Part shown: piece after piece, positions 12,377 through 38,170 of the stretch | How the letters are laid out: every line of letters begins with the position of its first letter | Numbering within the stretch: the first letter of the stretch is position 1 | Assembly (NCBI GenBank): GCA_965262235.1 | Contig: OZ253504.1 | Span: 3,361,684-3,425,683, forward strand | Reading direction: 5' to 3' | Length of the DNA: 64,000 bases | Source of the DNA: Dehalococcoidia bacterium | GTDB taxonomy: Bacteria > Chloroflexota > Dehalococcoidia > Bin125 | Translations under genes and position numbers: made by a program | The notes under the pieces: generated by a model | What the model saw: only the letters and a program-made list of their open reading frames with translations | Databases searched by the model: none | What the model was told of the DNA's origin: nothing

Positions 12377-12844
12377 CTACGACGCGGCTTCAGCGAGCGC
12401 CTGGACGTGTTTGAGCGAATCTTCGGCGTGCAGCGCGAAGTCGCGCGGGGCGTCGACGATGTGGCGGACGATGCCTTCGGCGTCGATCACGTAGGTCGTG
12501 CGGGCGGTGATCCCACGCTCTTCATTGAAGATGCCCCAGACCTTGCCGGTGCGGGCGAAGGGGAAGTCGCCGAGCAGCGGGAAGCTGAGGCCGAGCTCGC
12601 GTGCGTAGGCTCCGGCGGCGAAGGGTGAATCGACACTGACGCCCAGGACCTGGGCTCCAGCCGCCTCGAACTCGTCATGGAGTTCCTGGAAGCGGCTCAG
12701 TTCGTTCGTTCAACCACCGGTGAAGGCGAGCACGTACCAGGCGACGACGACGGTCCGGCCGCGGTACTCGCTGAGCTGATGCTCGCGGCGGTCGCCGTCC
12801 ATCAGCGTGAAATCGGGGGCCTGTTGTCCAACTTCCACGGCCAT
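12377..12844 (-). CDS. AhpE/Bcp-like 1-Cys peroxiredoxin with an in-frame TGA (candidate selenocysteine) at the peroxidatic position.
   Basis: I translated the whole frame by hand. It reads MAVEVGQQAPDFTLMDGD...VVVAWYVLAFTGG-[TGA at 12710-12712]-TNELSRFQELHDEFEAAGAQVLGVSVDSPFAAGAYARELGLSFPLLGDFPFARTGKVWGIFNEERGITARTTYVIDAEGIVRHIVDAPRDFALHAEDSLKHVQALAEAAS-TAG (12377). LAFTGG-U-TNEL aligns residue-for-residue with the AhpE motif LAFTGI-C-QGEL. The peroxiredoxin fold continues for 110 codons after the TGA with no frameshift. Confidence 0.65.
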
Positions 12845-12981
12845 GCGCCGCTCCCTTCGGTGCGGCGCGGGCGCGCCGCCGGGTCCTGCGGCCTGCATGG
12901 TACGCCTCCGCGGGAAGGTGCATGGGGCCGCATCGGGCGGCGCAACCAGGTGTCGGGAGGAGTGGATATAGACTCTGGGGT

Positions 12982-13521
12982 ATGACTTCCTCCGCCGAAT
13001 GGGACCTCGGCGCTGCCACCGCGCTCGAAGCTGAAGCGATCGGAGAGCCCGGTCAGCGTCGGTTCCGGCTGCGCGTGACCGCGGGAGACGTGACGGCTGC
13101 GATCTGGTGCGAGAAGGAGCAGGTGAACTCGCTGGCCACCGCGGTCCAGCAGATTCTCGCGCGGCACCGGCGCGACGAGGAACGACGGCGTCCGATCGCG
13201 CTGGACCTGATCGGCTTCCCGCTGACGCCGACGCACGAGTTCCAGGCCGGGCGCATTGCGCTCGGCTACGACGAGGATGCGCACACCCTGACGCTCTACG
13301 CGACGGATATCGACGCGCAGAGCGATCGTCCGACGCTGCGCGTCGACTTCAGTCGCGAGATCGCGCGCGCCTTCACGGTCCAGGCCGAGCTGGCTGTGGC
13401 CGGTGGACGGCCCTCGTGTCCGCTGTGTAAGCAGCCGTTGGAGGGCGACGCGCATCTCTGTCCGCAGACCAACGGGCATGGCGAAAGCTCGCTGGCAGGC
13501 ATCGGCCCACCGGAGTTCTGA
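12982..13521 (+). CDS. DUF3090-like protein with a C-terminal CPxC...HxC.
   Basis: MTSSAEWDLGAATALEAE... ending ...GRPSCPLCKQPLEGDAHLCPQTNGH. The architecture resembles the actinobacterial DUF3090 family. The start is taken at the internal ATG. Confidence 0.4.
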   Translation: MTSSAEWDLGAATALEAEAIGEPGQRRFRLRVTAGDVTAAIWCEKEQVNSLATAVQQILARHRRDEERRRPIALDLIGFPLTPTHEFQAGRIALGYDEDAHTLTLYATDIDAQSDRPTLRVDFSREIARAFTVQAELAVAGGRPSCPLCKQPLEGDAHLCPQTNGHGESSLAGIGPPEF

Positions 13522-13763
13522 CCGTTTCCGCGCGCACGCCGCTCACGCACGCCGCCTGGACCGCGCGCTCAGCCCCCCAGAGGATTGTCAACGGCGTCAT
13601 CGACGCGGCGCTGCTGCTGGGCGGCCCACGGCGGCCGCTCTGGACGCCGCAGTATCTGTTCACGCTGGCGGGCACGTTCAGCTTCTTCGCCTGTTTCTTC
13701 TACCTGACCACCACGCTGCCGGCCGAGCTTGGCGACCGCGGCGCGGGCGTCTTCGAGGTCAGC

Positions 13764-14828
13764 GTGATCGTGGGCGGCTACGCCGTGATCCCGATCCTGC
13801 TGCGCCCGTTCGTGGGGCGCTGGAGCGATGCAGGCCGGCGGATTCGGCTGATGCGGATCGGCCTGCTCTCCTTCGCGGTTTCGTTCGCGCTGATGATCTT
13901 CACCGAATCGATCTGGGTGTTCTTTGCGCTGCGTTGCGTGCAGGGCATCGGGATGGCCGCCTACCCGACGGCGGCCGGCTCGTTTATCGCGGAGATCGTG
14001 CCGCCGCGCCGGCGCGGCGAGGGGCTGGGCTTCTTCGGGTTGGCGACCAGCGGGTCGCAGATGATCACGCCGCTGGTCGGCGGGCTGGTGGTGGCTCACT
14101 TTGGCGGCTTCGATGCGGTGCTGGTGCTCGGCGTTGCGACGGCTGGTCTGGCGCTCGCGCTGACGGTGCTGCAGCGGGAGCCGACCCACTCGGGCCACCC
14201 GGCGCCGCCGATGAGCCTGCGCGCGCTGGTGCCGCCGGCGGCGGTCTTTCCGATGCTGGTCTTCCTGAGCATCACGCTGACGTTCAGCGCGGCGGCCACC
14301 TTCCTGCCCGCCTTCGAGGACGCCGACCCCAATCGAGACCTCGGAGGCGTGACGGGGTTGGGGCTGTTCTTCGTGTTTGGCGGGGCGGCCGCGATGATCA
14401 CGCGGCCGATTGCGGGGCGGATCTCCGACCGGTTGGGGCGCGTGCCGGTGATCATTCCGGGGCTGATCGCGACGATCGCCGGGCTGGTGGTGCTGACGCA
14501 GGCGCAGGTACCGGAGATGCTCTGGATCGCCGGAGCGCTGACCGGGGTCGGGATGGGCGGCGCTCATACGGGGCTGCTGGCGCTGGCGGTTGACCGCGTG
14601 GCGCCGACTCAGCGCGGCGGCGCGACCGCGACGTTCCAGCTCGCCTGGGATATCGGCGGGTTTGTCGGTGGCGGGCCCGTGTTGGGGCTGGTGGGCGGCG
14701 TGCTCTCGGTCGAGATGGTGTTCTGGGCGGCGGCGGTCGCCGCTGTGGTCGCGTTGGGCGCGTTGCTGGTTGGCCGGGCGATGGGCTGGACGCGCCCGCA
14801 CGCATCGTTCGTGGACGCGAGCACGTAG
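13764..14828 (+). CDS. MFS transporter whose N-terminus is unresolved.
   Basis: MFS motif A GRWSDAGRRIRLMRIG and about 10 TM helices. The same frame stays open back to a TAA at 13428-13430 and encodes TM1-like sequence (YLFTLAGTFSFFACFFYLTTTLP), but contains no ATG/GTG/TTG upstream of 13764. Confidence 0.7.
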   Translation: MIVGGYAVIPILLRPFVGRWSDAGRRIRLMRIGLLSFAVSFALMIFTESIWVFFALRCVQGIGMAAYPTAAGSFIAEIVPPRRRGEGLGFFGLATSGSQMITPLVGGLVVAHFGGFDAVLVLGVATAGLALALTVLQREPTHSGHPAPPMSLRALVPPAAVFPMLVFLSITLTFSAAATFLPAFEDADPNRDLGGVTGLGLFFVFGGAAAMITRPIAGRISDRLGRVPVIIPGLIATIAGLVVLTQAQVPEMLWIAGALTGVGMGGAHTGLLALAVDRVAPTQRGGATATFQLAWDIGGFVGGGPVLGLVGGVLSVEMVFWAAAVAAVVALGALLVGRAMGWTRPHASFVDAST

Positions 14829-14836
14829 CCGGCGCC

Positions 14837-15346
14837 ATGTCTCGATCGCCAGATCCTGGATCGGAGTTCGACACTCGGGGCGGTCGCACGGAGCTGCGCG
14901 AGCTCGCCCGCGAGGAGCAGCGCGAGCCGCTTGATCGGCGCCGGATCGCCGTGGCGTTCGCGGCCGGCGTGGTGTTCGTGCTGGCGATCGGCTTCGCGAC
15001 CGACCTGTTTCAGACGGGCCCGACGCGGGCCGATGTGGACGGCGCGTATCAGCGCGGCGCGGAGCGTGGCGCGAGCGTGGTTGAGTCGGACTGGCAGGAC
15101 GAACTCGTGCGCCGCGAGCGGATCGGCTTTGCCCGCGGGCGCAGCGAGGCGTCGACGCTGACCGCGGACGAGATTGCCCGTTTTCGTTACGGGTTCACCT
15201 ACGAGGCCGCGTACGACCTGGCGCTACAGCTGGCCGAGCGGGGGCTGACCGAATCCTGGGACGCGGGCTGGTGGAAGGGCTATCGCACCGCGTGGGAGCA
15301 GGTGCGAGGAGCGCCGCCGAGCGGTCCGGTTGAGGGGCCGCCATGA
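14837..15346 (+). CDS. Hypothetical membrane-anchored protein, paralog A.
   Basis: Single N-terminal TM helix, then GPTRADVD...W..GWWKGY motifs. It overlaps the next gene by ATGA. Confidence 0.45.
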   Translation: MSRSPDPGSEFDTRGGRTELRELAREEQREPLDRRRIAVAFAAGVVFVLAIGFATDLFQTGPTRADVDGAYQRGAERGASVVESDWQDELVRRERIGFARGRSEASTLTADEIARFRYGFTYEAAYDLALQLAERGLTESWDAGWWKGYRTAWEQVRGAPPSGPVEGPP

Positions 15347-15753
15347 ACCGGAATGTCGCCCTCGTGATTGCGTTCATCGTCGGCGCGCTCGCAATGGGGC
15401 TGGCCGGAAGCCTGAGCGGCGTGTTCGACCGCGGGCCAACGCAGCAGGACGTGGTCGCGAGCCGCGAGGCCGGCTACGCCGCGGCGGAGGAGGCGACGGC
15501 CCAACGGATGCAGCTGGAAGCCGACCGCAAGGAGTCGGAGGGCTACCAGCGCGGGCTGTTGGCGACTGAGGCCGCGCCGCTGCTCGACTATCTGCCCAAC
15601 CCGTCGGGTCTGATCGCCGGCGCCATCGCGGGGCGGGAGGACCTCGACGAAGGGTATGCGCAGCTCACCCAGGACGCGTGGGACGACGGCTGGGTAGTGG
15701 GGTACGACGTCGGGATTCACCATGCGTGGTTTGATCTGGGCGGGGGACGTTAA
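15343..15753 (+). CDS. Hypothetical membrane-anchored protein, paralog B.
   Basis: Same architecture as paralog A: TM helix, GPTQQDV, then ...WDDGWVVGY. Confidence 0.45.
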   Translation: MNRNVALVIAFIVGALAMGLAGSLSGVFDRGPTQQDVVASREAGYAAAEEATAQRMQLEADRKESEGYQRGLLATEAAPLLDYLPNPSGLIAGAIAGREDLDEGYAQLTQDAWDDGWVVGYDVGIHHAWFDLGGGR

Positions 15754-15779
15754 CAAGCTGCTGAAAGAGTCCGCCGGTT

Positions 15780-16960
15780 GGCGCTCGCCTCTCTTCCCCT
15801 GCCTTGCGGGGGGAGATGCCGAAGGCAGAGGGGGGTCAATCGGTTGGGGAGCGGGGGGGGGCTTGTATGTTCGCGCTGGCTCGGGAGCCGTTGGTGGCTG
15901 AGTCGAACCGGGGTGCGGCAGACCGATTCCCCCCTTCATTCTTGCGCCGCCTCCGTCATTCTTGCGCCGCCTCCGTCATTCCTGCGCCGCCTCCGTCATT
16001 CCTGCGCCGCCTCCGTCATTCTTGCGCCGCCTCCGTCATTCCTGCGCCGCCTCCGTCATTCTTGCGCCGCCTCCGTCATTCCTGCGCAGGCAGGAATCCA
16101 TGCGGTCTGTGGGGGTCAAGGGCACTCTCAAAGTTCGACGGCGCCCGATCACCCACGGCGCGCTGGGAGCTGTGGTGGGCCGTCGGGCGGATTGAGGCTC
16201 GTCGCACGGTTGGACGGTCGCATGGATTCCTGCCTCCGCAGGAATGACGGAAGGGGCGGATGTGACGGACAGGGCGGGTGTGACGGAAGGAGGCGAGTGT
16301 GAGGTACAGGGCGGGTGTGAAGGAAGGAGCGGGTGCGGCAGACCGGTGCCCCCTCTCCGTCATTCCTGCGCCGCCTCCGTCATTCCTGCGCAGGCAGGAA
16401 TCCATGCGGTCTGTGGGGGTCAAGGGCACTCCCAATGTTCGACGGCGTCCGATCACGCGCGGCGCGCTGGGAGCTGTGGTGGGCCGTCGGGCGGATTGAG
16501 GCTCGTCGCACGGTTGGGCGGTCGCATGGATTCCTGCCTGCGCAGGAATGACGGAAGGGGCAGGGGTGACGGACAGGGCGGGTGTGACTGAAGGGGCGGG
16601 TGTGACGGACAGGGCGGGTGTGAAGGAAGGAGCGGGCGCGGCAGACCGGTGCCCCCTCTCCGTCATTCCTGCGCCGCCTCCGTCATTCCTGCGCAGGCAG
16701 GAATCCATGCGGTCTGTGGGGGTCAAGGGCACTCCCAATGTTCGACGACGCCCGATCACGCGCGGCGCGCTGGGAGCTCTGGTGGGCCGTCGGGCGGATC
16801 GAGGCTCGTCGCACGGTTGGGCGGTCGCATGGATTCCTGCCTGCGCAGGAATGACGGAAGGGGCAGGGGTGACGGACAGGGCGGGTGTGACGGAAGGGGC
16901 GGGTGTGACGGACAGGGGCGGGTGTGAGGGACAGGGCGGGTGTGACGGACAGGGCGGGCG
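15780..16960. repeat. Nested tandem-repeat array built from hairpin repeat modules.
   Basis: 7 tandem copies of a 20-bp unit TCATTCYTGCGCCGCCTCCG at 15936-16075. Then 3 copies of a ~305-bp unit starting at 16076, 16380 and 16683. Each unit is bounded by the inverted hairpins TCATTCCTGCGCAGGCAGGAATCCATGCG and CGCATGGATTCCTGCCTGCGCAGGAATGACGGA. The units are separated by short ~20-bp GGGCGGGTGTGACGGACAG repeats. Confidence 0.8.
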
Positions 16961-17250
16961 TGACCAGCTGCTGCGCAGCGTGCCGGGCGTGGGTGAGCAG
17001 CTCTCACTGACGCTGCTGGCCGAGCTGCCGGAGCTGGGCCGGCTGAACCGTCGTCAGGTCGCCGCCCCTGGTCGGCGTGGCGCCCTTCAACCGCGACAGC
17101 GGCAGACGCACGACCTGGGGCGGGCGCGCCCCGCAAGCCCAAGAGGCTGGCCCTTACCGCCTGCATGTGCAAGCTGCTCGTGATCTTCAACGCGATGCTC
17201 AAACACCACACACCCTGGCGCGATTTGAGCCCCGACAGCGCCCACTGAGT
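16958..17250 (+). pseudogene. IS110-family transposase remnant: the C-terminal part only, with frameshifts.
   Basis: LLRSVPGVGEQLSLTLLAELPELGRLNRRQVAA, then ...VGVAPFNRDSGRRTTWGGRAP... in a second frame, then KRLALTACMCKLLVIFNAMLKHHTPW in a third frame. These match the conserved C-terminal block of IS110-family transposases. The 5' portion is replaced by the repeat array. Confidence 0.6.
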
Positions 17251-17345
17251 TGATCCTCAACACAGTTGCTCTGTCACTCCGTGACATCTCCCCCCGCTGC
17301 GCGGGGGGAGAGGAAGACGGGACACGGTGACTCTTCAGCAGCCTG

Positions 17346-17996
17346 CTACGGCGTGCGCTGGCCCCAGGCGTTCCAGTGGACGACCTCGGAGAGCGGGACT
17401 CGCGGGGCCGGCTTGAAGTCTTCGCCGGTGAAGTAGGCCATCGGGAAGAGCACGGTCTGGGTGACATCGTCGGGGATGCCGAGCAGCTCGGCGACGTCGG
17501 CCTCGTGGCGTAGGTGAATCGTGGTCCAGGCCATCCCGATGCCGCGCTCGCGGGCAGCGAGCATGAACGACCAGGCGCCGGGCAGGATCGAGCCGTAGAC
17601 GCCCGCGTGCGCGGTGGCGGGCAGCTGCTCGATGCGGCCGTTGATGCAGGCGATCAGCATCGCGGGGCAGCGGTGCATCTCCGCCGCGAGGTACATCGCC
17701 GACTTGGTCACCTTCTCGGACTGGTGGGTGCGGCTGTCGTCCGCGCCGTAGGCGGGCCGCTGCTCGGGCGGGCGGTCGGTCAGGACCTGGAACGACTTGC
17801 GGTAGATGTCGGCGACGGCGGAGATTTTGTCGGGGTCGGTGATCACGACCCACTGCCACTGTTGGCTATTCGAAGCGGTTGGAGCCTGCAGCGCGACATC
17901 GAGGCATTCTTCGATGACGGCGGGGTCGATCGGGCGCTCGAAGTCGAGGCGCAGGCGCACCGAGCGGGTGGTTCGCAGTACGTGGTCGGCATCCAT
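17346..17996 (-). CDS. Nitroreductase-family protein.
   Basis: MDADHVLRTTRSVR...SNSQQWQWVVITDP...P matches the NADH oxidase/flavin reductase fold. The start is set at the internal ATG (17996). Confidence 0.75.
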   Translation of the reverse strand: MDADHVLRTTRSVRLRLDFERPIDPAVIEECLDVALQAPTASNSQQWQWVVITDPDKISAVADIYRKSFQVLTDRPPEQRPAYGADDSRTHQSEKVTKSAMYLAAEMHRCPAMLIACINGRIEQLPATAHAGVYGSILPGAWSFMLAARERGIGMAWTTIHLRHEADVAELLGIPDDVTQTVLFPMAYFTGEDFKPAPRVPLSEVVHWNAWGQRTP

Positions 17997-17998
17997 TG

Positions 17999-18940: not shown

Positions 18941-18971
18941 CGTGGCTCGGGTAACGGCGCTACGGCTCGGA

Positions 18972-19379
18972 TTAGCCCCCGGCCGCCTGCATGAGGTACT
19001 GCGGGCCCATGTCGGTCAGCTCGATGATGTTGCCGTCGGGGTCCTTGCAGAAGGCGGCCCAGATGTCGTCGATTTCGCGGTGGTTGGGCTCAACCATGAC
19101 CTCGACGCCGGCCTCGCGCAGGCGCTCGACCTCACTGTGGAAGTCCTCGCGGGGGATGTAGAGCGCGAAGTGCGGGCCGATGCCCTCGCCAGCGCCGGCG
19201 TCGTTCTCGCGCTGCATCAGGTGCAGCTGCAAGGTGCCGACGACGTACCACTCGCCGGGGAAGCCGAAGTCGGGGCGATTGACGGTCTCCAGGCCCAACT
19301 GCTCTCCGTAGAAGTGGCGCGACTCTTCGACGTTCGACACACAGATCGCGACGTGACTGTATCCGGCTACGGCTGCCAT
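18972..19379 (-). CDS. VOC/glyoxalase-family protein.
   Basis: HVAICVSNVEESRHFYGEQLGL...HFALYIP...GVEVMVEP is the paired beta-alpha-beta-beta-beta VOC fold. The start is at the ATG giving MAAVAGY. Confidence 0.7.
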   Translation of the reverse strand: MAAVAGYSHVAICVSNVEESRHFYGEQLGLETVNRPDFGFPGEWYVVGTLQLHLMQRENDAGAGEGIGPHFALYIPREDFHSEVERLREAGVEVMVEPNHREIDDIWAAFCKDPDGNIIELTDMGPQYLMQAAGG

Positions 19380-19522
19380 CTCGAACCTCCTCCGCGCCCG
19401 TGCGCGTGCGCTGTTGAATCGGCTGGCATGGTACAGCTTCTGCACGTGGGCGATCGGCGACTTTACGCGCGATTGGTAGGCTGACCTCGCGGCAGCGAGC
19501 GCCGCGAACGTCAGGCGAGCCG

Positions 19523-21133: not shown

Positions 21134-21979
21134 ATGACAACTGGCGACGGCTGGGCCCGACCTGAGCTGCTGTGCGACACCGACTGGCTCGCGGAGCACA
21201 TTGACGACGATGACGTGGTGGTGCTGGACTGCGATGTGCTGCCCTCGTATCAGCGGCTGCACATCCCCGGATCGATCTGGTCGCTCTCGCGCTACTGGAA
21301 GACCGACCCGAAGGACGATTCGCAGATCTACGGGATGGACGACCCGGCGCAGTTTGCGGCGCTGCTCTCCGGGATGGGGATCACGCCCGACACGCAGGTG
21401 GTCGCCTACGACGCGTCGGGCTGCCTCTACGCGGCGCGGGTGTGGTGGACGTTTGAGCGGTTCGGACACACCAACTTCAGGATTCTCGATGGCGGCCTGG
21501 ACAAGTGGTACGCGGAGGGCCGGCCGCTGGCCAACGACAACCCGCGAGCGGTGCGCAGCGAGTACCCGGCGCCGGCGGCGGCGCGCAGCGACTCGGTCTG
21601 CAGGCTCGACGACATCCCCGCGCTGATCGAGGACGAGAACCACGTCTTCTGGGACGTGCGCTCGGACGGCGAATGGACGGGCGCGAACAAGCGCGGCACG
21701 CAGCGCGGCGGGCGCATCCCGGGGGCGGTGCATCTGGAGTGGCTGCACACGCTGGAGTCGCCGGTGCGGACGCTGAAGTCGCCCGCGGTGCTGCGCGAGA
21801 TGCTCGGCGAGCTGGGGATCACGCCGGACAAGCGCGTGACGACGTATTGACAGGGCGGCATCCGTGCGGCGCACGGATACTTCCTGCTGCGACTGCTCGG
21901 CTGGGACCACGCGGCGAACTATGACGCCTCGTGGCACGAGTACGGCAACGCGCTCGAGCACCCGATGGAGACCGAGTAG
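21134..21979 (+). CDS. Two-domain rhodanese (thiosulfate/3-mercaptopyruvate sulfurtransferase-like) with an in-frame TGA (candidate selenocysteine) at the catalytic-Cys position.
   Basis: Annotated ORF 21134..21850 ends ...KRVTTY-TGA (21848-21850). The same frame continues QGGIRAAHGYFLLRLLGWDHAANYDASWHEYGNALEHPMETE-TAG (21977-21979). TY-U-QGGIRAAH aligns with the rhodanese active-site loop TY-C-R.G.R..H. The tail matches the conserved ...NYDGSWxEWG... C-terminus. A perfect 7-bp hairpin ATCCGTG-cggcg-CACGGAT lies at 21860-21878, 10 nt after the UGA. Confidence 0.65.
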
Positions 21980-22480: not shown

Positions 22481-23638
22481 CTAGCTGCGCTCGAGCGCGG
22501 CAACGAGCGCGGCTTCGATTTCTTCGATTGGGGCGAAGGCTTCGAAGCGGGCGACCACCTGGCCGTCACCGTTGACGATGAACGTCCATTCGTCGGTGTG
22601 GAGCCCCCACTCTTCGAGCAAGGGGGTCCGCTGGGGCGGCTCGCCGCGGCGCACGTTGAGCGGGTTTTCGTAGAGATCGACGTGGATGTAGCGAACGCCG
22701 GCGGGATACAGCAGGCGCAGCTCGCTGAGCACTTCGACCTGCGGGCCGCAGAACGCGTTGGTGCAGAAGCCGGGGCTGGCGAAGACGACGACGAACGGTT
22801 CGCCGTTCTCAAGCGCCTCGGCGATCGTGAGTTCGTAGAGCATCGCGTCGGGCTCGGCGGCGGTCGAGAGCTCCTCGGCGCCGGCGACATCGCGCAGGGT
22901 GCGGTTGATCGATGCCGGCGGCTGCTCGCCGACGGAGGGCGCGAGCGTGTTCTCGCGCACGGTGATCGCGATTGGGATGTCGATGAAGCCATCGAGGCTC
23001 GGGGTGCGGATGTTGATCACCCAGTCGCCGGCCTGGCCGAACGTCAGCTGCGCGACATGGAAGCCGCGGATGCCGTCGGGGAAGAGCGTGTAGGCGGCGA
23101 GCGCATCGCTGGCCGACTCAGGGCCGGTGGCGACGGGCCAGTAGCTGAGCGCCAACGCGGGGAACTCGACGAGGCCGTCGTCGCTCTCCACCACGACGCT
23201 GACGCGGTTTTGACCAAGGCCGAGGTCGGGCGTTCCAAGTGAGACGGAGAACCCCTCGGGGCTGAGGTAGACGGGGTAGCCGCCGTCGGTCAGCAGCGCC
23301 AGGCGCGGGCTGAGCTCGTCCACGGGGACGGGCTGCAGCGCGTTGACCGTGGAGACTGTCGCGTCGCCGGACTGCTCGGCGGCGGTCTGCGACTGGTCGG
23401 CCTGCGAGTCGTGCTGTTGGGCGGCCTGCTGCGCGGCGGGCTGGTCAGCGTCAGCCGCTTCGGCTGGGGTTTGCTGCTGTGCCTGGTCCTGGGACTGTTG
23501 GGCCTCCGGCGCGGCGGGAGCGGAGGAGGCCGCTTGTTGCGGATCATCGCCGCCGCTGCCGCAGGCGGCGAGCAGCAGGCCCACGACGAGCGCGCCACCG
23601 ATCAGCGCGCCACCAATCGGGAATCGCAGAGACATCAT
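22481..23638 (-). CDS. Thioredoxin-fold lipoprotein (TlpA/redoxin-like) with a Gln-rich linker.
   Basis: Lipobox LLLAACGSGG and a low-complexity AQQ-rich linker. C-terminal ...FVVVFASPGFCTNAFCGPQ (CxxxC in a thioredoxin-like beta-alpha context). Confidence 0.55.
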   Translation of the reverse strand: MMSLRFPIGGALIGGALVVGLLLAACGSGGDDPQQAASSAPAAPEAQQSQDQAQQQTPAEAADADQPAAQQAAQQHDSQADQSQTAAEQSGDATVSTVNALQPVPVDELSPRLALLTDGGYPVYLSPEGFSVSLGTPDLGLGQNRVSVVVESDDGLVEFPALALSYWPVATGPESASDALAAYTLFPDGIRGFHVAQLTFGQAGDWVINIRTPSLDGFIDIPIAITVRENTLAPSVGEQPPASINRTLRDVAGAEELSTAAEPDAMLYELTIAEALENGEPFVVVFASPGFCTNAFCGPQVEVLSELRLLYPAGVRYIHVDLYENPLNVRRGEPPQRTPLLEEWGLHTDEWTFIVNGDGQVVARFEAFAPIEEIEAALVAALERS

Positions 23639-25152
23639 TCACCGCCCAGGTAGGAACCGAACGTGAAGGCGAAGATCGCCAGTTGGTTGGAGTTCGAGCG
23701 CAGTTTCAGTTCGTGGGTGCTCCACTCGGGCAGCTTCACGAGGCGAAAGAGATCGTTCTTCGTGACGCGCACGAAGGAGCGCCCGTCGCCATCGAAACTG
23801 ATGTCGTCGCCCGCCTCGGCGGGCTCGAGCCAGCGGCCGTCCATCTCGATCAAGACATCGAAGGGCTGCGCGCCGTCTTCGAGTGTCAGCACGACGTTGA
23901 CGGTGCGCGCGGTGAACGTGAAGGCGAGGTAGTCCTCGAGATCGTTGGTGTTGCGCGCATGCACGATCGCTTCGGCGGTGTTGCGCCAGAGGCCCTGCAG
24001 GTACCACTTGTTGGCCTGCCGTCCGCTGGCGTCCTCGATGTCGGTGTACTGCTGGGCGACGTTGGAGGTGAGGTAGAACTCGGGCTGCGCGGCGTACTGG
24101 ATGCGGCCGTAGTTGCGGTCGGTGCCGCCGTAGAGCTCGCGGGTCTGGTTCAGCGAGACGGGGTCGCGCTGGGGGGCCACGGCGGAGGTGCCCTCCTCGA
24201 CGCCGCTCAGGTCCCAGCCGGCTTCCTCGAGGAGCTCGCGGATCGCCCGCTCGGTTTCGAGATAGTCGCCTTCGCCGAAGTGCTGGTAGCGGACGCTCAT
24301 GTCCGGGGCGATCAGATATTTGGCCGGCCAGTAGCGATTGTTGAAGGCGCGCCAAGTGCGGAAGTCGTTGTCCTGCGCGACCACGTACTCGATGCCGTAC
24401 TGCTCGATCGCTTGCTCGACGTTGGCGCGCACTTTCTCGAACTCGAACTCGGGCGAGTGCACGCCGATGATCGTGAGGCCGCGGTCGCCGTACTTCGCCT
24501 GCCATTCGACGAGGAAGGGCAGGGTGCGGATGCAGTTGACGCAGGTGTAAGTCCAGAAGTCGATCAGGACGACGTTGCCCTTGGCGAGCTCGAGCGCGAT
24601 TGAGGTCTCCTCGCCGTTGAGCCAGGCGTTGACGCCGCGCAGGTCGCTGACGGAGGCATCGGCGGCGATCTCTTCGGCACGCAATCGCAGTCGCTCGGCT
24701 TCGTCGGGGGCGACCTCCTGCTCGGCCTGCATTTCGGCCTCGTCTTCCGCCTGCGCTTCTGCTTGCTCTTCTTCCTGCAGATCGTCCTTGCTGGGCTGCG
24801 CGGCCTGCTGCTGGGTTCCGTCGTCGTCGTCGGAGTCCACGGTCGCGGCCGACTGCGCGTCGTCGTCTGCCGCGTCCTCTTGCTGCGCCGTCTGCTGCGC
24901 GGCTTGCTCCTGGCGGTCGTCGTCGGCCGGTTGCTCGGCGGCCGTTTGCTGCGACCGTTGTGCGGTTTGCTCCTGGCTGTCGGCGGCGGCCGGTTGCTCG
25001 GCGACCTGTTGTTGCTGCGTCTGCGCGGCCACCGCTGGCGTCGCGCTCTGCTGCGCCTGTTGATCGGCGTCCGACCCGCAGGCGGCCAGCGCGAGCGCGC
25101 CGATCACCAGTGCCGTTACGCCTGCAATCGCCCGAATCAGAAGTGGTTTCAT
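23635..25152 (-). CDS. DipZ C-terminal-domain-like thiol:disulfide oxidoreductase (thioredoxin-like CxxC plus a C-terminal beta domain).
   Basis: Lipoprotein signal LALAACGS, Gln/Asp-rich linker, then VVLIDFWTYTCVNCIRTLPFL...GVHSPEFEFEK, typical of the DipZ/ResA-like thioredoxin domain. It overlaps the downstream gene by 4 nt. Confidence 0.6.
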   Translation of the reverse strand: MKPLLIRAIAGVTALVIGALALAACGSDADQQAQQSATPAVAAQTQQQQVAEQPAAADSQEQTAQRSQQTAAEQPADDDRQEQAAQQTAQQEDAADDDAQSAATVDSDDDDGTQQQAAQPSKDDLQEEEQAEAQAEDEAEMQAEQEVAPDEAERLRLRAEEIAADASVSDLRGVNAWLNGEETSIALELAKGNVVLIDFWTYTCVNCIRTLPFLVEWQAKYGDRGLTIIGVHSPEFEFEKVRANVEQAIEQYGIEYVVAQDNDFRTWRAFNNRYWPAKYLIAPDMSVRYQHFGEGDYLETERAIRELLEEAGWDLSGVEEGTSAVAPQRDPVSLNQTRELYGGTDRNYGRIQYAAQPEFYLTSNVAQQYTDIEDASGRQANKWYLQGLWRNTAEAIVHARNTNDLEDYLAFTFTARTVNVVLTLEDGAQPFDVLIEMDGRWLEPAEAGDDISFDGDGRSFVRVTKNDLFRLVKLPEWSTHELKLRSNSNQLAIFAFTFGSYLGGE

Positions 25153-25188
25153 CTGCTCACCGTATCGCGATGCGGGCCGATGGGGGCC

Positions 25189-30819: not shown

Positions 30820-30964
30820 CTCGCGCGACAGTTCACTTGTGGCGCGCCGAATCGGGTCTCAGCGTGGCGCGGGTGTGGCGCGGGTTCGGTCTTGGACACA
30901 CGCTCCGCAGCGGTTATGGTGGCGCGGTCAGTCCGAACGGGCTGCGCGGGGATTAGGGGCGAGT

Positions 30965-32215: not shown

Positions 32216-32311
32216 CTCGGGGCTAGCTCTGGACGCCACAGCGGCGTCAGACGTTCGTTGGCGGTGGCGCCAATCGAGCGTGCTGGCGCCGCGCTGACGC
32301 CGGGGCGCGGA

Positions 32312-32941
32312 TCACGCATCGCCGACGGCGTCGAGCACTCCGGTGGCCGCTCGTCGGCGCTGGGCCCGCGCCACCTCATGGCTGAGGATGACCAGGTCGT
32401 GCTTGCGGCCATCGCGGTCCTTGACGTGTTGTTTGAGGACCGCCTCCGGCTCGAAGCCGAGCGAGCGGAAGACAGTGATCGCCTGCTGCTGGTCGATGGT
32501 CATCTGGGCGATGACCTTTTCCACGTTCATCTCCAGCGCGATCCGAAACGCTTCTTCGGTCAGCAGTCGACCCGCGCCCCGTCCGCGCAGCTCGGGCGCG
32601 ACCAGCGCGCGGAGTTCGGCGACATGCGGCGACCAGGGCAGATCGTTTCGGTCGACCGTCGCATAGCCCCGGATCTCGCCGCCCTCGTCGATCAGCAGGA
32701 GCGACGTCGCGAGGCCGGCCTCAATTCGCTGTAGCCAGATTTCGACCTGTGCCGGGTCGGTGATGTCGCGGCGCAGGAAGAGCAGATCGTGGGGCGGCAG
32801 CTGGCGCGCGAAGGCGACCATCGCCGCGGCGTCGTCGCGGTCCATGAGACGCAGCGTGACGCGGGCGTTGGCGATGGTGGCGGCGGCGGGATAGCGGGTG
32901 TCGTGATTCATTGCAGTTAGACCGAACGCGCTGAGAGCCAT
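32312..32941 (-). CDS. GNAT-family N-acetyltransferase.
   Basis: Acetyl-CoA binding motif RGRGAGRLL in a GNAT fold. Confidence 0.75.
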   Translation of the reverse strand: MALSAFGLTAMNHDTRYPAAATIANARVTLRLMDRDDAAAMVAFARQLPPHDLLFLRRDITDPAQVEIWLQRIEAGLATSLLLIDEGGEIRGYATVDRNDLPWSPHVAELRALVAPELRGRGAGRLLTEEAFRIALEMNVEKVIAQMTIDQQQAITVFRSLGFEPEAVLKQHVKDRDGRKHDLVILSHEVARAQRRRAATGVLDAVGDA

Positions 32942-34089
32942 TGGTCGAGCTTGGGCCAGAGCCGGTATTTGGCGTTGCCTCCGGCGACCAGGCTGGCGTG
33001 GCCGCCGCGCATCACGATCGCCTCGGTGTCCTCCGACTGCACCGCGTCGAGCAACGGCTTGGCTGCTTCGTAGGGCACGACATGGTCATGTTCGGCCATG
33101 GCGTGGATGATCGGGAGCTTGATCGATCCGAGGTCAACGCGCTTGCCGCCCAGCTCCAGCGTGCCTTCGAGCATCGCGTTCTTCCAGTAGAGCTCTTTGA
33201 TCATCTGCCGGAAGGCCTCTCCGGCGAACGGAATCTGATCCGCAGCCCAGCGGTCGACCATCATGAATGACTGGACATACTTGTCGTCGCGGATGCGATC
33301 GAGCACCTGGATCGGGCTCGTGAGGCGGCCGGTGGGCCGCAGCATGTCGAACGCGGAAAGCAGCATCTCGCCGGGCACGTTGCCCAGCGAGTCGACGATG
33401 CGGTCGACATCGAAGTAGCGCTGATCGGTCCACTGCGTGAACAGGCCCATGCCTTTGAAGTTCACGGGGGTCGTGAGGCAGGCAGCGTGGCGGACCGGAG
33501 CATCGGGGTGGGTGGCCAGGTAGAGCATGCCCAGGGTGCCGCCCAGGCAGTAGCCAAGTATGTTCAGTTCGGACTCGCCGGAGTCCTGCTTGATCCGTTC
33601 GATGCAGGCCGGGATGCGCGACAGCGCGTAGTCGTCGAGGGTGAGCGAACTCTCCTCGGGAAGTGGCGCGCCCCAGTCGATCAGGTAGACGTCGTAGCCC
33701 TGCTCGACGAGGAACTCCACCATGCTCTGACCCGGTGTGAGGTCGAGGATGTAGGGCTTACTGACGAGCGAGGTGATCACCAGCAGCGGGAGGCGGTAGA
33801 CCTCTGCCGTCTTGGGACGGTAGTGATACAGCTTCATCGAGCCCTCGCTCAGGATCGTGTCCTTGGGCGTCGAGCCGGGCTGTGGGTCGTCGAGCGAGAT
33901 GTACTCAAGGCCGACGAGTCCGCGACGCAGCACGGTCTCGACGGTCGAGCGGACCTGACTGGCGACGTCATCAGCCACGTCGCCAGGGAAGTCCGCGGGT
34001 GCAATTTCGGGGGTTGAATCATCGGACGCGACGGAAGCGAGCGAATCGGATTGGGGCTCAGCTACGACTGTCGTCAATGTGGACTCCAC
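32917..34089 (-). CDS. phaC: Poly(3-hydroxyalkanoate) synthase, class III/IV PhaC.
   Basis: Lipase box ILGYCLGG (G-x-C-x-G), alpha/beta-hydrolase core, about 390 aa as in class III/IV PhaC. Confidence 0.8.
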   Translation of the reverse strand: MESTLTTVVAEPQSDSLASVASDDSTPEIAPADFPGDVADDVASQVRSTVETVLRRGLVGLEYISLDDPQPGSTPKDTILSEGSMKLYHYRPKTAEVYRLPLLVITSLVSKPYILDLTPGQSMVEFLVEQGYDVYLIDWGAPLPEESSLTLDDYALSRIPACIERIKQDSGESELNILGYCLGGTLGMLYLATHPDAPVRHAACLTTPVNFKGMGLFTQWTDQRYFDVDRIVDSLGNVPGEMLLSAFDMLRPTGRLTSPIQVLDRIRDDKYVQSFMMVDRWAADQIPFAGEAFRQMIKELYWKNAMLEGTLELGGKRVDLGSIKLPIIHAMAEHDHVVPYEAAKPLLDAVQSEDTEAIVMRGGHASLVAGGNAKYRLWPKLDQWLSARSV

Positions 34090-34193
34090 TGTTCGCAGGA
34101 CGCACGCGTGAAGGCAGTGCTGGTCAGTTCCATCGTGACGCGCGTGGGCACGGACGGGTTACGCGCGAGTTAAGGGCGCGCGAGGCTGAACAC

Positions 34194-34604
34194 TCAGTCT
34201 GTATCCGGCGTTGCAGGCCGTACTGCGGGCCGTGTTGCGGCCCGTTTGGTGCGCGCCGGCTTGGGGCTGGGCTGATCGCTTGCGCCCTTCGCCAGGTCGG
34301 CCTGCAGCACAGAGAGGTTCGCCTCGATCGCGGCCAGCCGATTCTCGATGGCCTGCAGGCGGTCGCCGAGGGTCAGCACGTCGGTGCGGGTGGGCACGTT
34401 CAGCGCCGTGAGATACGGGCCCATCGCCTCGCTCATCGTCTTCTGGAAGTGCAGGAAGACATCCAGGTTGCGGCCCAGAGACTGGCTGAATTCGTCGGTG
34501 CCCATCATCTCGTTGAAGAATTCGTTCCACTGGCGCTCGGACTGGGTGGCCCAGTCACGCCAAACGGCTGAGATGTCCGGGGGTGTGGTCTCGGTCTTGC
34601 TCAT
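34194..34604 (-). CDS. Putative PHA synthase partner subunit (PhaE/PhaR-like) with a coiled coil.
   Basis: 136-aa protein immediately upstream of phaC with a C-terminal heptad region (LGDRLQAIENRLAAIEANLSVLQADL). The role is inferred from position. Confidence 0.4.
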   Translation of the reverse strand: MSKTETTPPDISAVWRDWATQSERQWNEFFNEMMGTDEFSQSLGRNLDVFLHFQKTMSEAMGPYLTALNVPTRTDVLTLGDRLQAIENRLAAIEANLSVLQADLAKGASDQPSPKPARTKRAATRPAVRPATPDTD

Positions 34605-35026
34605 CAGGCTTGTTCTCCGGTGCTCGTGTCATCGGTGGCCGCCGCCGCTTCTTCGAAGCGGTCGATGGCGCCCGTGAGCACGGCGTGATAGTGATCCAGC
34701 GTGTCGATCCAGGTGCGGAGGAAGATCTCCCCGGCGGCGGTCAACGAATACATGCGCCGCGCGGGGCCCTGGTCGGACGTGTCCCAGAACGAAGAGACGA
34801 ACCCGCTGCTCTCCATCTGGCGCAAGGCGCGATAGACGGTGCCGCTGTCGGAGCGGGGCAGGCCGGCCTCGCTCAGTTGTTGACTGAGCTGGTAGCCGTA
34901 GGCATCGCAGCCCTTCAGAAAGGCGAGCAGTCCCGTGGCCAGCATCTCGCCGTGCAGGCGGGGCTGGGCGGTCGTGCGCTTGCGCCCGCGGCCCGCTGGC
35001 ATGTCTTCTGGCGCGTCATTTGGCAT
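34604..35026 (-). CDS. PadR-family transcriptional regulator.
   Basis: Winged HTH ...LAFLKGCDAYGYQLSQQLSEAGLPRSDSGTVYRALRQMESSGFVSS.... Confidence 0.75.
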   Translation of the reverse strand: MPNDAPEDMPAGRGRKRTTAQPRLHGEMLATGLLAFLKGCDAYGYQLSQQLSEAGLPRSDSGTVYRALRQMESSGFVSSFWDTSDQGPARRMYSLTAAGEIFLRTWIDTLDHYHAVLTGAIDRFEEAAAATDDTSTGEQA

Positions 35027-35139
35027 GACTGCATTCTGCCGCTATGTGTGAACCGATGCAAGATGCGTATTGCACATAGCTGCATCCCTCCCTACATTCG
35101 TCCCATCAGACCACCAGCGACGCACACGGAGCGAACACC

Positions 35140-35658
35140 ATGACCGAGCAGACCGCGACCGAGCAGGACGCCGCCGAGCAGGCTCCGACCGACGAGTATT
35201 TCGACGCCCTGCTGGCCAGCTACGACGCGCTGGCCCAAGCGATCGAGCAGGCCAGCGAGCGCGGCGTCCGGTTGTCCCGCCAACTGCTCACCGATGTGTC
35301 CGCAGCGCAGCGCAAGGCGCTCGAGCTGGCGCGGCAGGTTGCGGCCGACCCGAGCGACACGGCCGACGCGTACTCGGCGATCATGGAATCCGCCGTGGCC
35401 GCTCAGAGCCAGGCGCTCGACTTCACCCAGATGGCCTACAAAGAGGCCATGGCTGCGGGAACCGAGGGTCGCGAGGCGCTCGATGCCGTGCTCAGCGCCA
35501 GCCGCACCGCCGCCGAGGCGGCGCTCGCGATCTCGCGTGACTGGCAGAGCACGAATCCCTGGGCGGCATTCGTGCAGAGCAGCCTGCGCAAGGGCATGGA
35601 GACCTTCACGACGGCCGCCAACGGCGCGACCAAGGAACCCGCCGACACCAAGGCCTAA
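35140..35658 (+). CDS. Phasin-family PHA-granule-associated protein.
   Basis: Ala/Glu-rich, fully helical 172-aa protein divergent from PadR and beside phaC. The composition is typical of phasins. Confidence 0.55.
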   Translation: MTEQTATEQDAAEQAPTDEYFDALLASYDALAQAIEQASERGVRLSRQLLTDVSAAQRKALELARQVAADPSDTADAYSAIMESAVAAQSQALDFTQMAYKEAMAAGTEGREALDAVLSASRTAAEAALAISRDWQSTNPWAAFVQSSLRKGMETFTTAANGATKEPADTKA

Positions 35659-35659
35659 G

Positions 35660-35840
35660 AATCCTCTGAGCGAATCGGACCTCATCTCCCCTCGCTCCCC
35701 GGGCGGAGATGTCACGGCGTGACGGCGGGCCGCGCGCGCCCCGCTCGGGCAGATACCGCCACGCCGGTGAGTCGGGACCGCTGCCCCCCTCTGCCTTCGG
35801 CATCTCCCCCCGCTTTGCGGGGGGAGAGTTATTCCGAGCA
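35660..35840. repeat. Palindromic repeat elements.
   Basis: GAATCCTCTGAGCGAATCGGACC...GGAGATGTCACGGCGTGAC ... CATCTCCCCCCGCTTTGCGGGGGGAGAG. Confidence 0.7.
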
Positions 35841-35843
35841 CTC

Positions 35844-36656
35844 CTAGTTTCTGGCCTGGCCCTGCCGCTCGCGGGGCGTGTCGGCCAACAGTTCGGCGAC
35901 CGCCTGATACGCCGCGCTGCTGTAGATGATCCCGTAGTGGCTCGTGTCGATCGCCACGTTGTACTCGGGCTCGTTCTCCATGCAGCTCTCGGGCACCACC
36001 AGCCCGTCACGTTTGGCGTAGAGCGCATAGCGGCGAAACGTCGGTTGCTGCGGGCGCATGATGTTCTCGGTGAAGGGGCAGGTGCAGTGTCCGCTGTAGC
36101 AGGCCGGCGCGACGTCCCAGGTCAGATGCGAGCCGGCCTGCCGGCGCACGGCAGCCATCGCCTCGATCAGCGCCGGATGCACGTGGGCGATGTCGTTGAA
36201 CGGCGCCGCCAGCGAGATCAGCAGATCGACCAGCTCAGGATGCCGGAACGCCACACTTCGGGCGATCAGCGCGCCGAGGCTGTGACCGATCAGGTGGACG
36301 AGGGCGCCGGTCTCCTGCGCGGCCCGCTTGACGACGCTCAGAACCACGTCTGAGGCGACATCGGGGCAGTTCACGTTGAGGCCGAGGCCCGAGTAGTAGG
36401 GCTGGTAGCCGATCCGGGCGAGCCACCAGTAGAGCTCCATCATCGACAGGTCGGTGCCCATGAAACCCGGCACCACCACGACCGCTTCGCCGCGCCCGTG
36501 TGGCAGGCCCCAGCCGTAGTACGCGGGAGTGCTCCGCAGGTTCAGCCACTCGCAGAAGAAGCCGAGCTCGTTCTGGATCGGCGTCCGGGCCGGCTGAATG
36601 GAATGGTCGTCGAGATACAGGCCCGAAAACGGCGGCGGAGCGCCCGTGGACGGCAT
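35844..36656 (-). CDS. Alpha/beta hydrolase (lipase/esterase-like); possibly a PHA depolymerase, inferred only from context.
   Basis: GHSLG nucleophile elbow (LIGHSLGALIA). The start is at the ATG giving MPSTGAPP. Confidence 0.6.
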   Translation of the reverse strand: MPSTGAPPPFSGLYLDDHSIQPARTPIQNELGFFCEWLNLRSTPAYYGWGLPHGRGEAVVVVPGFMGTDLSMMELYWWLARIGYQPYYSGLGLNVNCPDVASDVVLSVVKRAAQETGALVHLIGHSLGALIARSVAFRHPELVDLLISLAAPFNDIAHVHPALIEAMAAVRRQAGSHLTWDVAPACYSGHCTCPFTENIMRPQQPTFRRYALYAKRDGLVVPESCMENEPEYNVAIDTSHYGIIYSSAAYQAVAELLADTPRERQGQARN

Positions 36657-36793
36657 CTGCGACACGTGCTCCAGATGTGCATGCGCGGATTGATTCAGCC
36701 TACAAGGGCGAGCTTCGCCGCCCCCGGGTGGTGGTACCTTCGCCCTGACTCGGCCCCGCCACCGACCTGCCACCGACCTGCTCAGGAGCCATC

Positions 36794-38170
36794 ATGGTCC
36801 GCCTCTCCGACCTCCACCCCGAAGAAGCGGAGCATCTGAGGAGCTGGCCGCCGCTTCAGATCGAGCCGGGGGAGTGGATCACGCCCAAGCCGCTGCGCGA
36901 GTCGACGATCGCTCTGATCACCACCGCGGGCCTGCATCGGCGCGATGACGTGCCGTTCGCGTCGGGCGCGGTGGACTATCGGATCATCCCCGGCGACGCT
37001 GACTTCGCGGATGTCATCTCCTCGCACTTGAGTTCCAACTGGGACCGCTCGGCGCTCGCGCAGGATCTGAACGTCGTGCTGCCGATCGAGCGCCTCAGGG
37101 AGTTGGCTGCGGCGGGCGAGATCGGCGGCGTGGCACGCTGGCACTACTCGTTCATGGGCGGGGTCCCGCGCGCCGATCGGCTGGAGCCGTACGCCCGCGA
37201 GGTGGCGGGCCTGCTCAAGCGCGACGGCGTCGACGCCGCCGTGCTCATACCCGTTTGACCGGCCTGCACGCGCGCCGTCGGCGCGCTCGGCCACTACATC
37301 GAGCGTGAGGGCGTGGCCACGACCAGCATCTCGCTGGTCCGCGAGCACAGCGAATACATGAAGCCGCCGCGCGCGCTGTGGGTGCCGTTCTACCTCGGCC
37401 GCCCGTTCGGCGTGCCCGACGACCCCGACTTCCAGCGCGACGTGCTGCGCGCCGCGCTCGACCTGCTACCGACGCTGACCGAGCACGGCATCGTCGACTA
37501 TCCAGTCGAGGCGCCCGACGACTCGTTCTCCCACACGTGGGCCTGCCCGGTCTCGTTCGAGGCGTCGGACGCCGACTCGTTGGGCGCCCGCCTGCGCGGC
37601 GAGGCGCAGCGGCTCGCGCCCTGGTGGCGCGAGACGCACCGGGCTCGCGGACGCACCCTGGTGGGTGCGAGCGCGCCGCTGCCAGACGGACCAGACCGCG
37701 AAGTGACCGTGCCGCAGCACGTCGACACGCTGGCCGCCGCGCTTGTGGACGTCGCGGAGGGCGCGCCGCTCGACACGCCGCCTGTGATCGAGCGGCCGGC
37801 CGGCTCGAACCCCGCCGAAGCGGCAAATGAGCTTGCCTGGTCGCACCCGATGCCCTTCCTGCTGCGTCACCTCGTGCAGGACCTGCGCTGCTTCTATCAG
37901 GAGGCCGCGGCGGGGCAGCCGGGCGCGCAGGCGCCGTCGCATCGCGCGTTGAACGAATGGATCTTTGGCGAGACCGTGCTCGGCGAGGCGATCATCGAGA
38001 TGGGCCGCCGGCTCACCGAGGCCGGCGATCCACGCCTGCGCGCCTTGCGCTTCTGGTCGATCCCCGAAGGCTTCTGGCCCGATGACGACGAGGTTGTCAC
38101 CGCTGCGAGCATGACCGACTCACTCGCGCGCGCCGACGCCGCCAACAAGCTGTTCGCGCCGCGCCAATAG
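36794..38170 (+). CDS. Glycine/betaine/sarcosine/D-proline reductase family 'selenoprotein B' (GrdB-like) homolog with an in-frame TGA (candidate selenocysteine) in a U-x-x-C motif.
   Basis: Track ORFs 36794..37258 and 37313..38170 are in the same frame and separated only by the TGA at 37256-37258. Read-through gives ...DGVDAAVLIPV-U-PACTRAVGALGHYIEREGVATTSISLVREHSEYMKPPRALWVPFYLGRPFG.... The U-P-A-C-T motif resembles the UxxC redox motif of GrdB/PrdB-family proteins. A GC-rich hairpin (GGCC..GCGCGCC-GTC-GGCGCGC..GGCC) lies at 37261-37292. Confidence 0.55.

Follow-up and report, generated by a model that had tools for sequence, protein, structure and literature searches.

Introduction

Selenocysteine (Sec) forms of peroxiredoxins, PrdB proteins and rhodanese-related sulfurtransferases have been catalogued repeatedly in marine metagenomes. 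The Sargasso Sea survey of 2005 recorded 43 Sec genes for peroxiredoxins (Prx) with a TxxU motif, PrdB genes in the ratio of 42 Sec forms to 1 Cys form with a UxxC motif, and 3 rhodanese-related sulfurtransferases of the COG2897 type (PMC1088965); the Global Ocean Sampling (GOS) data yielded 253 Prx and 235 PrdB selenoproteins (PMC2398784), and a 2026 review, in which all three families are tabulated and the COG2897-type Sec rhodanese is entered as 'rhodanese-like forms 2 and 4', describes FdhA as scarce in marine datasets (PMC13188914). Here we describe a stretch of 64,000 nucleotides (nt) from contig OZ253504.1 of a Dehalococcoidia (Chloroflexota) genome, referred to throughout as the window, in which an AhpE-type Prx gene, a two-domain rhodanese gene and a PrdB-like gene each contain an in-frame UGA. 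We consider it highly probable that each of the three is a genuine selenoprotein gene, independent of the others, with Sec introduced by SelB-dependent insertion at a bacterial selenocysteine insertion sequence (bSECIS). An initial annotation of this DNA had proposed three unrelated genes with UGA in place of a catalytic Cys and a hairpin downstream, and this much is borne out by alignment with Cys homologues, by conservation of the TGA and by hairpins at 17-30 nt from it.

Results and Discussion

UGA at the catalytic cysteine in three redox genes

The genes, their Sec codons and the hairpins assigned to them are listed in Table 1; the 26-kb span that they occupy starts at 12377, where the minus-strand Prx gene has its TAG stop, and ends at 38170 with the stop of the PrdB-like gene. 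In each of the three the UGA falls exactly where relatives have their catalytic Cys, and it is this coincidence, in three redox genes, that leads us to regard the products as selenocysteine enzymes. The TGA is kept across orthologues of 55-96% identity, and substitutions beyond it are found mostly at third codon positions. A close comparison is provided by a syntenic relative (ENA ERZ26167216, contig ctg495745, 2.81 Mb; loci L001 and L004), 93-96% identical at the nucleotide level, in which the TGA is present in all three genes. Differences from this relative downstream of the TGA, counted by codon position, amount to 2/1/11 for Prx, 0/0/1 for the rhodanese and 15/12/32 for the PrdB-like gene, and the true stops of the Prx and rhodanese genes are common to both genomes. 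The nearest genomes, two chromosomes of ∼3 Mb named 'MAG: Dehalococcoidia bacterium' (MAG, metagenome-assembled genome; OZ250140.1 and OZ244584.1), carry PrdB-like orthologues that are 92-93% identical, and further members of the clusters are labelled Chloroflexi or Chloroflexota.

Table 1. Positions of the three proposed selenoprotein genes, their Sec codons and the associated hairpins within the window
Feature	Position	Strand	Detail
AhpE-type 1-Cys peroxiredoxin selenoprotein gene, 155 aa	12377..12844	minus	Sec45 in VLAFTGG-U-TNE
Prx Sec-UGA codon	12710..12712	minus	context ...AFTGG-U-TNELS
Prx candidate bSECIS hairpin	12659..12697	minus	lower stem AGCCGCUUC/GAGGCGGCU, upper GGAACUC/GAGUUC, loop CAUGAC
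Two-domain rhodanese (SseA/COG2897-type sulfurtransferase) selenoprotein gene, 281 aa	21134..21979	plus	Sec239 in TTY-U-QGGIRA
Rhodanese Sec-UGA codon	21848..21850	plus	context ...RVTTY-U-QGGIRAAH
Rhodanese candidate bSECIS hairpin	21860..21878	plus	AUCCGUGC-GGC-GCACGGAU
PrdB/GrdB-family selenoprotein gene, 458 aa	36794..38170	plus	Sec155 in PV-U-PAC-TR
PrdB-like Sec-UGA codon	37256..37258	plus	context ...VLIPV-U-PACTRAVG
PrdB-like bSECIS hairpin	37270..37286	plus	GCGCGCC-GUC-GGCGCGC

The Prx product scores 121.7 bits against the Pfam AhpC-TSA model (PF00578, threshold 26). Among solved structures it is closest to AhpE of M. tuberculosis, a 1-Cys peroxiredoxin whose LAFTGIC Cys aligns with the UGA and, to judge from the conserved TxxC motif, is taken to be the peroxidatic residue. 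The corresponding T42-x-x-U45 is present in the window protein, and its conserved Arg (ARTTYVID) aligns with that of AhpE (NRGTFVVD). Metagenomic homologues of the Cys form, at 35-45% identity, read AFTGGCTNE where the window has UGA, and the TGA is kept in the orthologues at L004, L005 and L085-L087 and retained at 78-79% identity. Within the Sec clade (the window, L004 and L085-L087, all YVLAFTGGU) Val takes the place of the Pro normally conserved in PxxxTxxC/U; the Cys-form homologues retain this Pro, as in FFPAAFTGGC and WFPKAFTGGC. Against the PrxU equivalog NF040737 the protein scores 78.9 bits, below the cutoff of 270.

The rhodanese product contains two Pfam Rhodanese domains (PF00581, 111.8 bits) and aligns over its full length with the Thermus rhodanese of PDB entry 1UAR, with the Cys of VVYCRIAERS, which we take to be the catalytic residue in the rhodanese active-site loop, at the position of the UGA. 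Full-length Cys homologues at 44-61% identity read TTYCQGGIRAA here. The TGA is found in all six Sec forms examined, spanning 55-100% identity, with orthologues at 77, 66, 61 and 55%. At least 45 rhodanese protein clusters end at the Sec position, the TGA having been confirmed for 6 of them, and the few truncated clusters with a named source are from Dehalococcoidia or Chloroflexota. The surroundings of the gene (S41 protease, NUDIX, FTHFS) are kept in relatives, for Sec and Cys forms alike. On one Dehalococcoidia contig (L104, 3579-3714, minus strand) a 253 aa gene lying 3' of a Sec rhodanese gene gives weak matches to T4_deiodinase and AhpC-TSA; families of this type are frequently selenoproteins in marine datasets.

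The PrdB-like protein consists of a PrdB-like domain, approximately residues 31-233, followed by a helical C-terminal domain of ∼225 aa. Pfam GRDB (PF07355) is the sole model that it passes, with 37 bits against a threshold of 22. Its best NCBIfam match is PrdB, TIGR04483, at 115 bits and below the cutoff of 300; the scores against GrdB TIGR01917 (39.4 bits, cutoff 602) and the subfamily model TIGR01918 (46.4 bits, cutoff 65.45) are also too low. The label 'GrdB-like' that the gene was first given thus holds at the level of the Pfam family, with PrdB the closer relative. We have surveyed one genome per GTDB species, retaining the best 80 loci of at least 600 matches, from MAGs of Dehalococcoidia/Chloroflexota, Acidimicrobiia/Actinomycetota and Gamma- and Alphaproteobacteria, and taking in L001-L003 beside them. 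The motif P[VI]-U-P-x-C-[TS], which in the window includes the U-x-x-C pair U155-P-A-C158, occurs with TGA in every one of 87 PrdB-like copies from 82 related loci. Full-length Cys homologues are rare, those found (P0017 and P0068) reading PVCPNCTR and PVCPLCTR. A second Cys, C251 ('ACPVSF'), is invariant in the C-terminal domain, and an AlphaFold model of a Cys homologue gives generic Rossmann-like matches only. In the protein database the family is present almost wholly as C-terminal fragments of ∼250-300 aa that start right after the UGA.

None of the partners PrdA, GrdA, GrdC and GrdE was found beside the PrdB-like gene, either in the window, where its neighbours are an alpha/beta-hydrolase and a PhyH dioxygenase, or among the clustered neighbours of ∼80 loci, and the same clustering gave no conserved operon partner. 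The commonest neighbours, a cluster that from its sequence we take to be RecQ and a 476 aa protein of TPR-like appearance, are confined to one paralogue clade, and the neighbourhood differs already in orthologues at 69-72% identity (L002 and L003). Pairs of PrdB-like genes 1.4-1.7 kb apart occur in Dehalococcoidia (L047, L058, L060, L061 and L063), L007 and L045 are two paralogues of one genome, and each paralogue has a TGA and a hairpin of its own. The gene in the window is separated from an OpuAC betaine-binding gene by a block (32917-36773) that encodes a class III polyhydroxyalkanoate (PHA) synthase (PhaC-like 32917-34089, PhaE-like 34194-34604), a PadR regulator and alpha/beta-hydrolases; in L001 a 71 aa ORF (open reading frame) is all that lies between the two, and the PrdB-like gene there is found ∼700 bp downstream of a glycine-betaine ABC transporter.

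Hairpins downstream of the UGA codons

According to the consensus of Zhang and Gladyshev a bSECIS has a loop of 3-9 nt, a stem of 4-16 bp, a G in the first two loop positions and a loop 16-37 nt from the UGA, and the absence of a shared sequence among such elements is part of their standard description (both as given in PMC13188914). The distance from UGA to loop is 18 nt in the PrdB-like gene, 17 nt in the rhodanese gene and 30 nt in the Prx gene. The PrdB-like (GUC) and rhodanese (GGC) hairpins agree with the consensus in all respects, and that of Prx agrees in distance and stem, the early G being the exception.

For the PrdB-like hairpin 82 sequences were aligned over 66 nt from the UGA, free of gaps. 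A 7-bp stem (columns 15-21 with 25-31) closes a GUN loop, with 89.5% of the cells paired, compared with 43-60% in slid controls where the 3' partner was moved by 1-3 columns. Double changes are found in 57 cells as against 19.9 ± 3.3 in shuffled alignments, a number reached in none of 500 shuffles, and the covariation couples a non-synonymous with a synonymous position (CGC...GCG, GGC...GCC, GGU ACC...GGU ACC). The six Sec forms do not differ in the rhodanese core, CCGUGCGGCGCACGG, even at synonymous sites, among which is a rare CGU Arg codon; the nearest Cys rhodanese (L106) encodes IRAAQA (Gln-Ala) with CGG/CAG, and the stem cannot form. The Prx hairpin has two tiers, extending from +16 to +54, with a minimum free energy z score of -3.05 and none of 200 shuffles as stable. 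It is kept with compatible changes in Sec forms, at -31 to -38 kcal/mol and with the loop ACGA in the relative, and is absent in Cys forms.

A covariance model built from the PrdB-like hairpin scores 83.8 bits at its own site and finds nothing else credible in the window. The Prx and rhodanese hairpins are not detected by this model even at E ≤ 10, establishing that the three elements have no common sequence consensus. The initial annotation had noted as much and thought it of interest; the observation is correct, but for bSECIS elements it is already textbook knowledge. A search of the window with Rfam and ARAGORN returned a tmRNA only, with no tRNA-Sec and no SECIS family.

Stop codons and selenocysteine machinery

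TGA is the commonest stop in the window. It ends 19 of 42 confident ORFs, 2 of the 19 being Sec sites, and with the Sec sites set aside it still ends 17 of 40. As the commonest ordinary stop it argues against a genome-wide reassignment of UGA, a possibility that had been raised when the sequence was annotated and that can be answered in the negative.

Components of the Sec machinery are found next to PrdB-like genes in related loci. In two alphaproteobacterial loci a tRNA-Sec gene adjoins the PrdB-like gene (L068, 205-299; L075, 837-931), accompanied by SelD in L068 and by SelB in L075. In two Chloroflexota MAGs, one labelled Dehalococcoidia (L076, 3001-7158) and the other Chloroflexia (L083, 1-4158), SelD and SelB lie directly beside the PrdB-like gene, and this SelD is itself a selenoprotein (SCAG-U-AGK). 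The L076 SelD scores 353 bits against TIGR00476 (cutoff 125), and SelB, in a copy cut by the end of the locus, 234 bits against TIGR00475 (cutoff 242). In a search with the L076 SelD all of the 120 matches listed are at least 62% identical to it, and most of the closest among them are N-terminally truncated calls of 323 aa, indicating that a SelD with Sec is common in this clade. The machinery is thus demonstrated in the phylum, in physical linkage with the PrdB-like family, and by extension the organism studied here would possess it too.

The recoding step at the three UGAs can be pictured by analogy with the known bacterial mechanism. A ribosome would meet the UGA, the in-ORF hairpin downstream would act as a bSECIS and would be expected to recruit SelB-GTP-Sec-tRNA(Sec), and Sec would be inserted with no termination. 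The predicted products are a 1-Cys peroxiredoxin of the AhpE type that has Sec as its peroxidatic residue, a tandem-domain sulfurtransferase with Sec in its active-site loop, and a stand-alone protein with a U-x-x-C redox pair.

Search for further selenoprotein genes

The GC content of the window is 66-78%, for the most part 68-70%, and since raw ORF lists are full of spurious frames at such values we have relied on GC content by codon position and on codon log-odds, using a model trained on long ORFs and scanned over the whole 64 kb. Five in-frame TGA codons with coding-like sequence on both sides were obtained. Two candidates were rejected as Sec sites: the TGA at 620 is a boundary between same-frame neighbours, an unlabelled gene followed by one for a 2Fe-2S ferredoxin, and that at 6612 is the same-frame boundary between tandem amidases. 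When ORF pairs in one frame across a single TGA are considered, as the initial annotation had suggested, the three reported sites stand. The other pairs in the window, at 620/623, 953/956, 6610-6612, 21119 and 25186, are ordinary adjoining genes, involving respectively the ferredoxin, a LysR regulator, the tandem amidases, an S41 protease followed by the rhodanese, and NudC followed by a thioredoxin-like protein. The amidase paralogues (5215-8040, minus strand; 464 and 476 codons) share a frame with a TGA alone between them, and constitute a false positive for selenoprotein scans based on same-frame ORF pairs.

Two looser scans, which looked for Sec close to the ends of proteins or within redox motifs, gave no convincing fourth selenoprotein in the window. 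In ∼445 kb of high-GC related loci, scanned with a sensitivity of about one half (several known PrdB-like sites were missed), no new Sec family was found, the sites recovered being those of the known rhodanese, Prx and PrdB-like genes.

Alternative explanations

Several observations weigh against Sec insertion. The rhodanese and PrdB-like hairpins, with z scores of -0.96 and +0.31, lie within the range of shuffled sequences at 68-70% GC. Single-sequence folding was accordingly dropped as SECIS evidence for these two, leaving the hairpin evidence for them comparative and not thermodynamic. The rhodanese stem, moreover, is invariant and does not covary, and the Prx apical loop (CAUGAC) lacks the G that the bSECIS consensus would lead one to expect at its first two positions. 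Finally, none of selA, selB, selC or selD lies in the window, and Sec decoding in this exact lineage, by a system encoded elsewhere in the genome as had been supposed at the outset, is something that we infer as a necessary consequence of the three Sec genes. Might the UGAs then be real stops, in pseudogenes, as the product of sequencing or assembly errors, or in split genes with working fragments? Gene callers do read them so, and two thermodynamically unexceptional hairpins would cause no surprise, but a TGA that coincides precisely with the catalytic residue in each of three unrelated families, and is kept across independent assemblies and phyla in all of the PrdB-like copies, is hard to reconcile with such an origin, as is a post-TGA frame under purifying selection as far as a shared true stop; a rhodanese cut at Tyr238 would, in addition, be without its active site. 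We regard this explanation as effectively refuted. A decoding of UGA as one of the standard amino acids, whether by reassignment across the genome or by read-through to Cys or Trp at these sites, is also very improbable. Such a reading would be in keeping with a 64-kb window that has no sel gene, yet TGA serves as an ordinary stop in the proportion given above and is in frame at three sites only, the hairpins are conserved, family-specific and at bSECIS spacing, and SelB and a Sec-containing SelD stand beside the PrdB-like family in related Chloroflexota MAGs. Three genuine selenoprotein genes therefore remain by far the preferred interpretation.

A separate question is whether the density of three such genes in 26 kb is meaningful in itself, reflecting either an exceptionally large selenoproteome or a linked selenoprotein or redox island, and here we are doubtful. 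The arrangement is kept in the closest relative, thiol-redox genes are interspersed (two thioredoxin-like lipoproteins at 22481-25188, a ThiS-like gene at 11209-11502), and Dehalococcoidia carry multiple PrdB-like paralogues, some of them in tandem. If ∼20 Sec genes were placed at random in 3.4 Mb the chance of three in a given 26 kb would be ∼5e-4 per span, by a rough Poisson estimate that is open to selection bias as the window was chosen because it had been flagged. Set against this, the genes lie on differing strands with 8-15 kb of unrelated housekeeping genes between them, the intervening genes including those for DUF3090, an MFS transporter, a nitroreductase, an S41 protease, NudC/NUDIX, FTHFS, a betaine ABC transporter, PHA synthase and PadR as well as the two thioredoxin-like lipoproteins. 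The surroundings of the PrdB-like gene have changed at 69-72% identity, with no constant partner over 80 loci, and there is neither a fourth candidate in the window nor a new family in the related flanks. The linkage of rhodanese and FTHFS genes is found with the Cys form as well (L106), and so reflects synteny of the lineage and not a Sec-specific clustering. The three genes are in ordinary core-genome surroundings and form neither an operon nor an island. A sizeable selenoproteome in the lineage is nonetheless plausible.

Other features of the window

A lower-GC insertion of ∼3.1 kb (39962-43038, plus strand; 59.5% compared with ∼68%) is not found in the syntenic relative (L001). It is flanked by smpB (39292-39825) and a CoA-transferase gene (43126-44562), near the tmRNA gene (44733-45091), and its ORFs encode a ParB-like protein of 410 aa, an unassigned protein of 326 aa and a Dam-type methylase of 284 aa (FVDPPYF), giving it the look of a small mobile restriction-modification or defence islet. 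The region 50500-55700, by comparison, with mutL (50527-52749) and mutS (52574-55666) both on the minus strand, reaches 77-78% GC as against ∼68% elsewhere, and its antisense (plus) strand is open over great lengths, with frames of as many as 1004 codons. Several predicted lipoproteins or solute-binding proteins encoded at 22481-25188 (minus), 45626-47602 (plus) and 63130-64000 (plus) have long low-complexity linkers, rich in Gln, Ala, Glu and Asp, past the signal peptide, for example QQAQQSATPAVAAQTQQQQVAEQP; both thioredoxin-like proteins between the rhodanese and NudC belong to this set.

Significance

In the annotation of this genome and of many related ones from Dehalococcoidia, the three enzymes figure as fragments or 'hypothetical proteins' that have lost the catalytic residue, and any conclusion on metabolism or redox biology drawn from these MAGs is consequently wrong at these loci. 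That gene callers would split or truncate all three had been anticipated in the initial annotation, and the calls in related genomes, of 154 + 289 aa, a truncated protein of 238 aa and a fragment of 62 aa, are as foreseen. Two of its broader statements fare less well. The description 'atypical selenoproteome' is at odds with the presence of all three families in the Sargasso Sea data of 2005, and of Prx and PrdB again in GOS, as well as with the fact that FdhA-poor sets are the marine norm; with families already catalogued in marine metagenomes the set is a typical one. The phrase 'selenoprotein-rich lineage', in turn, goes beyond three genes in 64 kb and the absence of any further family from the ∼445 kb of related loci at about half sensitivity. 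The genes add new members, from a little-studied phylum, to selenoprotein families that were already known; they leave the known picture of the bacterial selenoproteome unchanged, and as these families have been known from ocean metagenomes for ∼20 years the result is a correction of annotation and not a new kind of biology.

Within those bounds the genes document the use of Sec in uncultured Dehalococcoidia, together with a Sec-containing SelD in related Chloroflexota MAGs, in a phylum that is barely mentioned in the selenium reviews consulted. They also bring data to the 'marine PrdB' puzzle, in the form of a TGA that is kept in 87 of 87 copies, a covarying SECIS, an extra C-terminal domain and the lack of reductase partners. 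More speculatively, the PrdB-like protein, which is widespread in MAGs of Dehalococcoidia, Acidimicrobiia and Proteobacteria of environmental and marine origin, may be no subunit of a proline or glycine reductase but a member of an uncharacterised enzyme family that depends almost obligately on Sec. The position of its gene next to SelB and a Sec-containing SelD in some Chloroflexota suggests that it could help to sustain the Sec trait in FdhA-poor lineages. We put this forward as a tentative idea, on balance not the expected outcome, with the corollary that the selenoproteome of this Dehalococcoidia clade could be among the larger ones outside the anaerobic groups for which large sets are usually reported.

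Comparison with known systems

The three hairpins resemble the bSECIS model in lying within the ORF just 3' of the UGA, with an apical loop of 3-6 nt at 17-30 nt and an upper stem of 6-8 bp, and depart from it in the Prx loop, which breaks the G rule both in the window (CAUGAC) and in the relative (ACGA). The Prx gene itself is like those of other Sec peroxiredoxins, such as PrxU of Eubacterium acidaminophilum and the marine Prx, in its AhpC/TSA fold, its T-x-x-U peroxidatic Sec and its bSECIS hairpin inside the ORF. It is unlike PrxU in being nearest to the 1-Cys AhpE type, in having Val for the motif Pro and in a hairpin loop without an early G. The rhodanese corresponds to the COG2897/SseA-type Sec rhodanese of the Sargasso Sea set, with tandem domains, Sec for the catalytic Cys and a UxxG motif in the form U-Q-G-G; sequences of this type were scarce in early marine surveys (3 and 1), compared with the at least 45 truncated clusters found here.

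The PrdB-like protein shares with PrdB and with selenoprotein B of the glycine/betaine/sarcosine reductases (PF07355; TIGR04483, TIGR01917/8) the PF07355 domain and an equivalent U-x-x-C. It differs from PrdB in the ∼225 aa helical C-terminal domain, which extends beyond the 238 positions of the PrdB model, and from PrdB/GrdB systems in being encoded by a stand-alone gene, with no PrdA or GrdA/C/E neighbour in the window and 80 related loci. Unlike the characterised reductases of clostridial amino-acid fermenters it is carried by MAGs of groups such as Dehalococcoidia, Acidimicrobiia and Pseudomonadales. In being nearly always a Sec protein the family mirrors the PrdB of the Sargasso Sea, with its 42 Sec forms to 1 Cys form.

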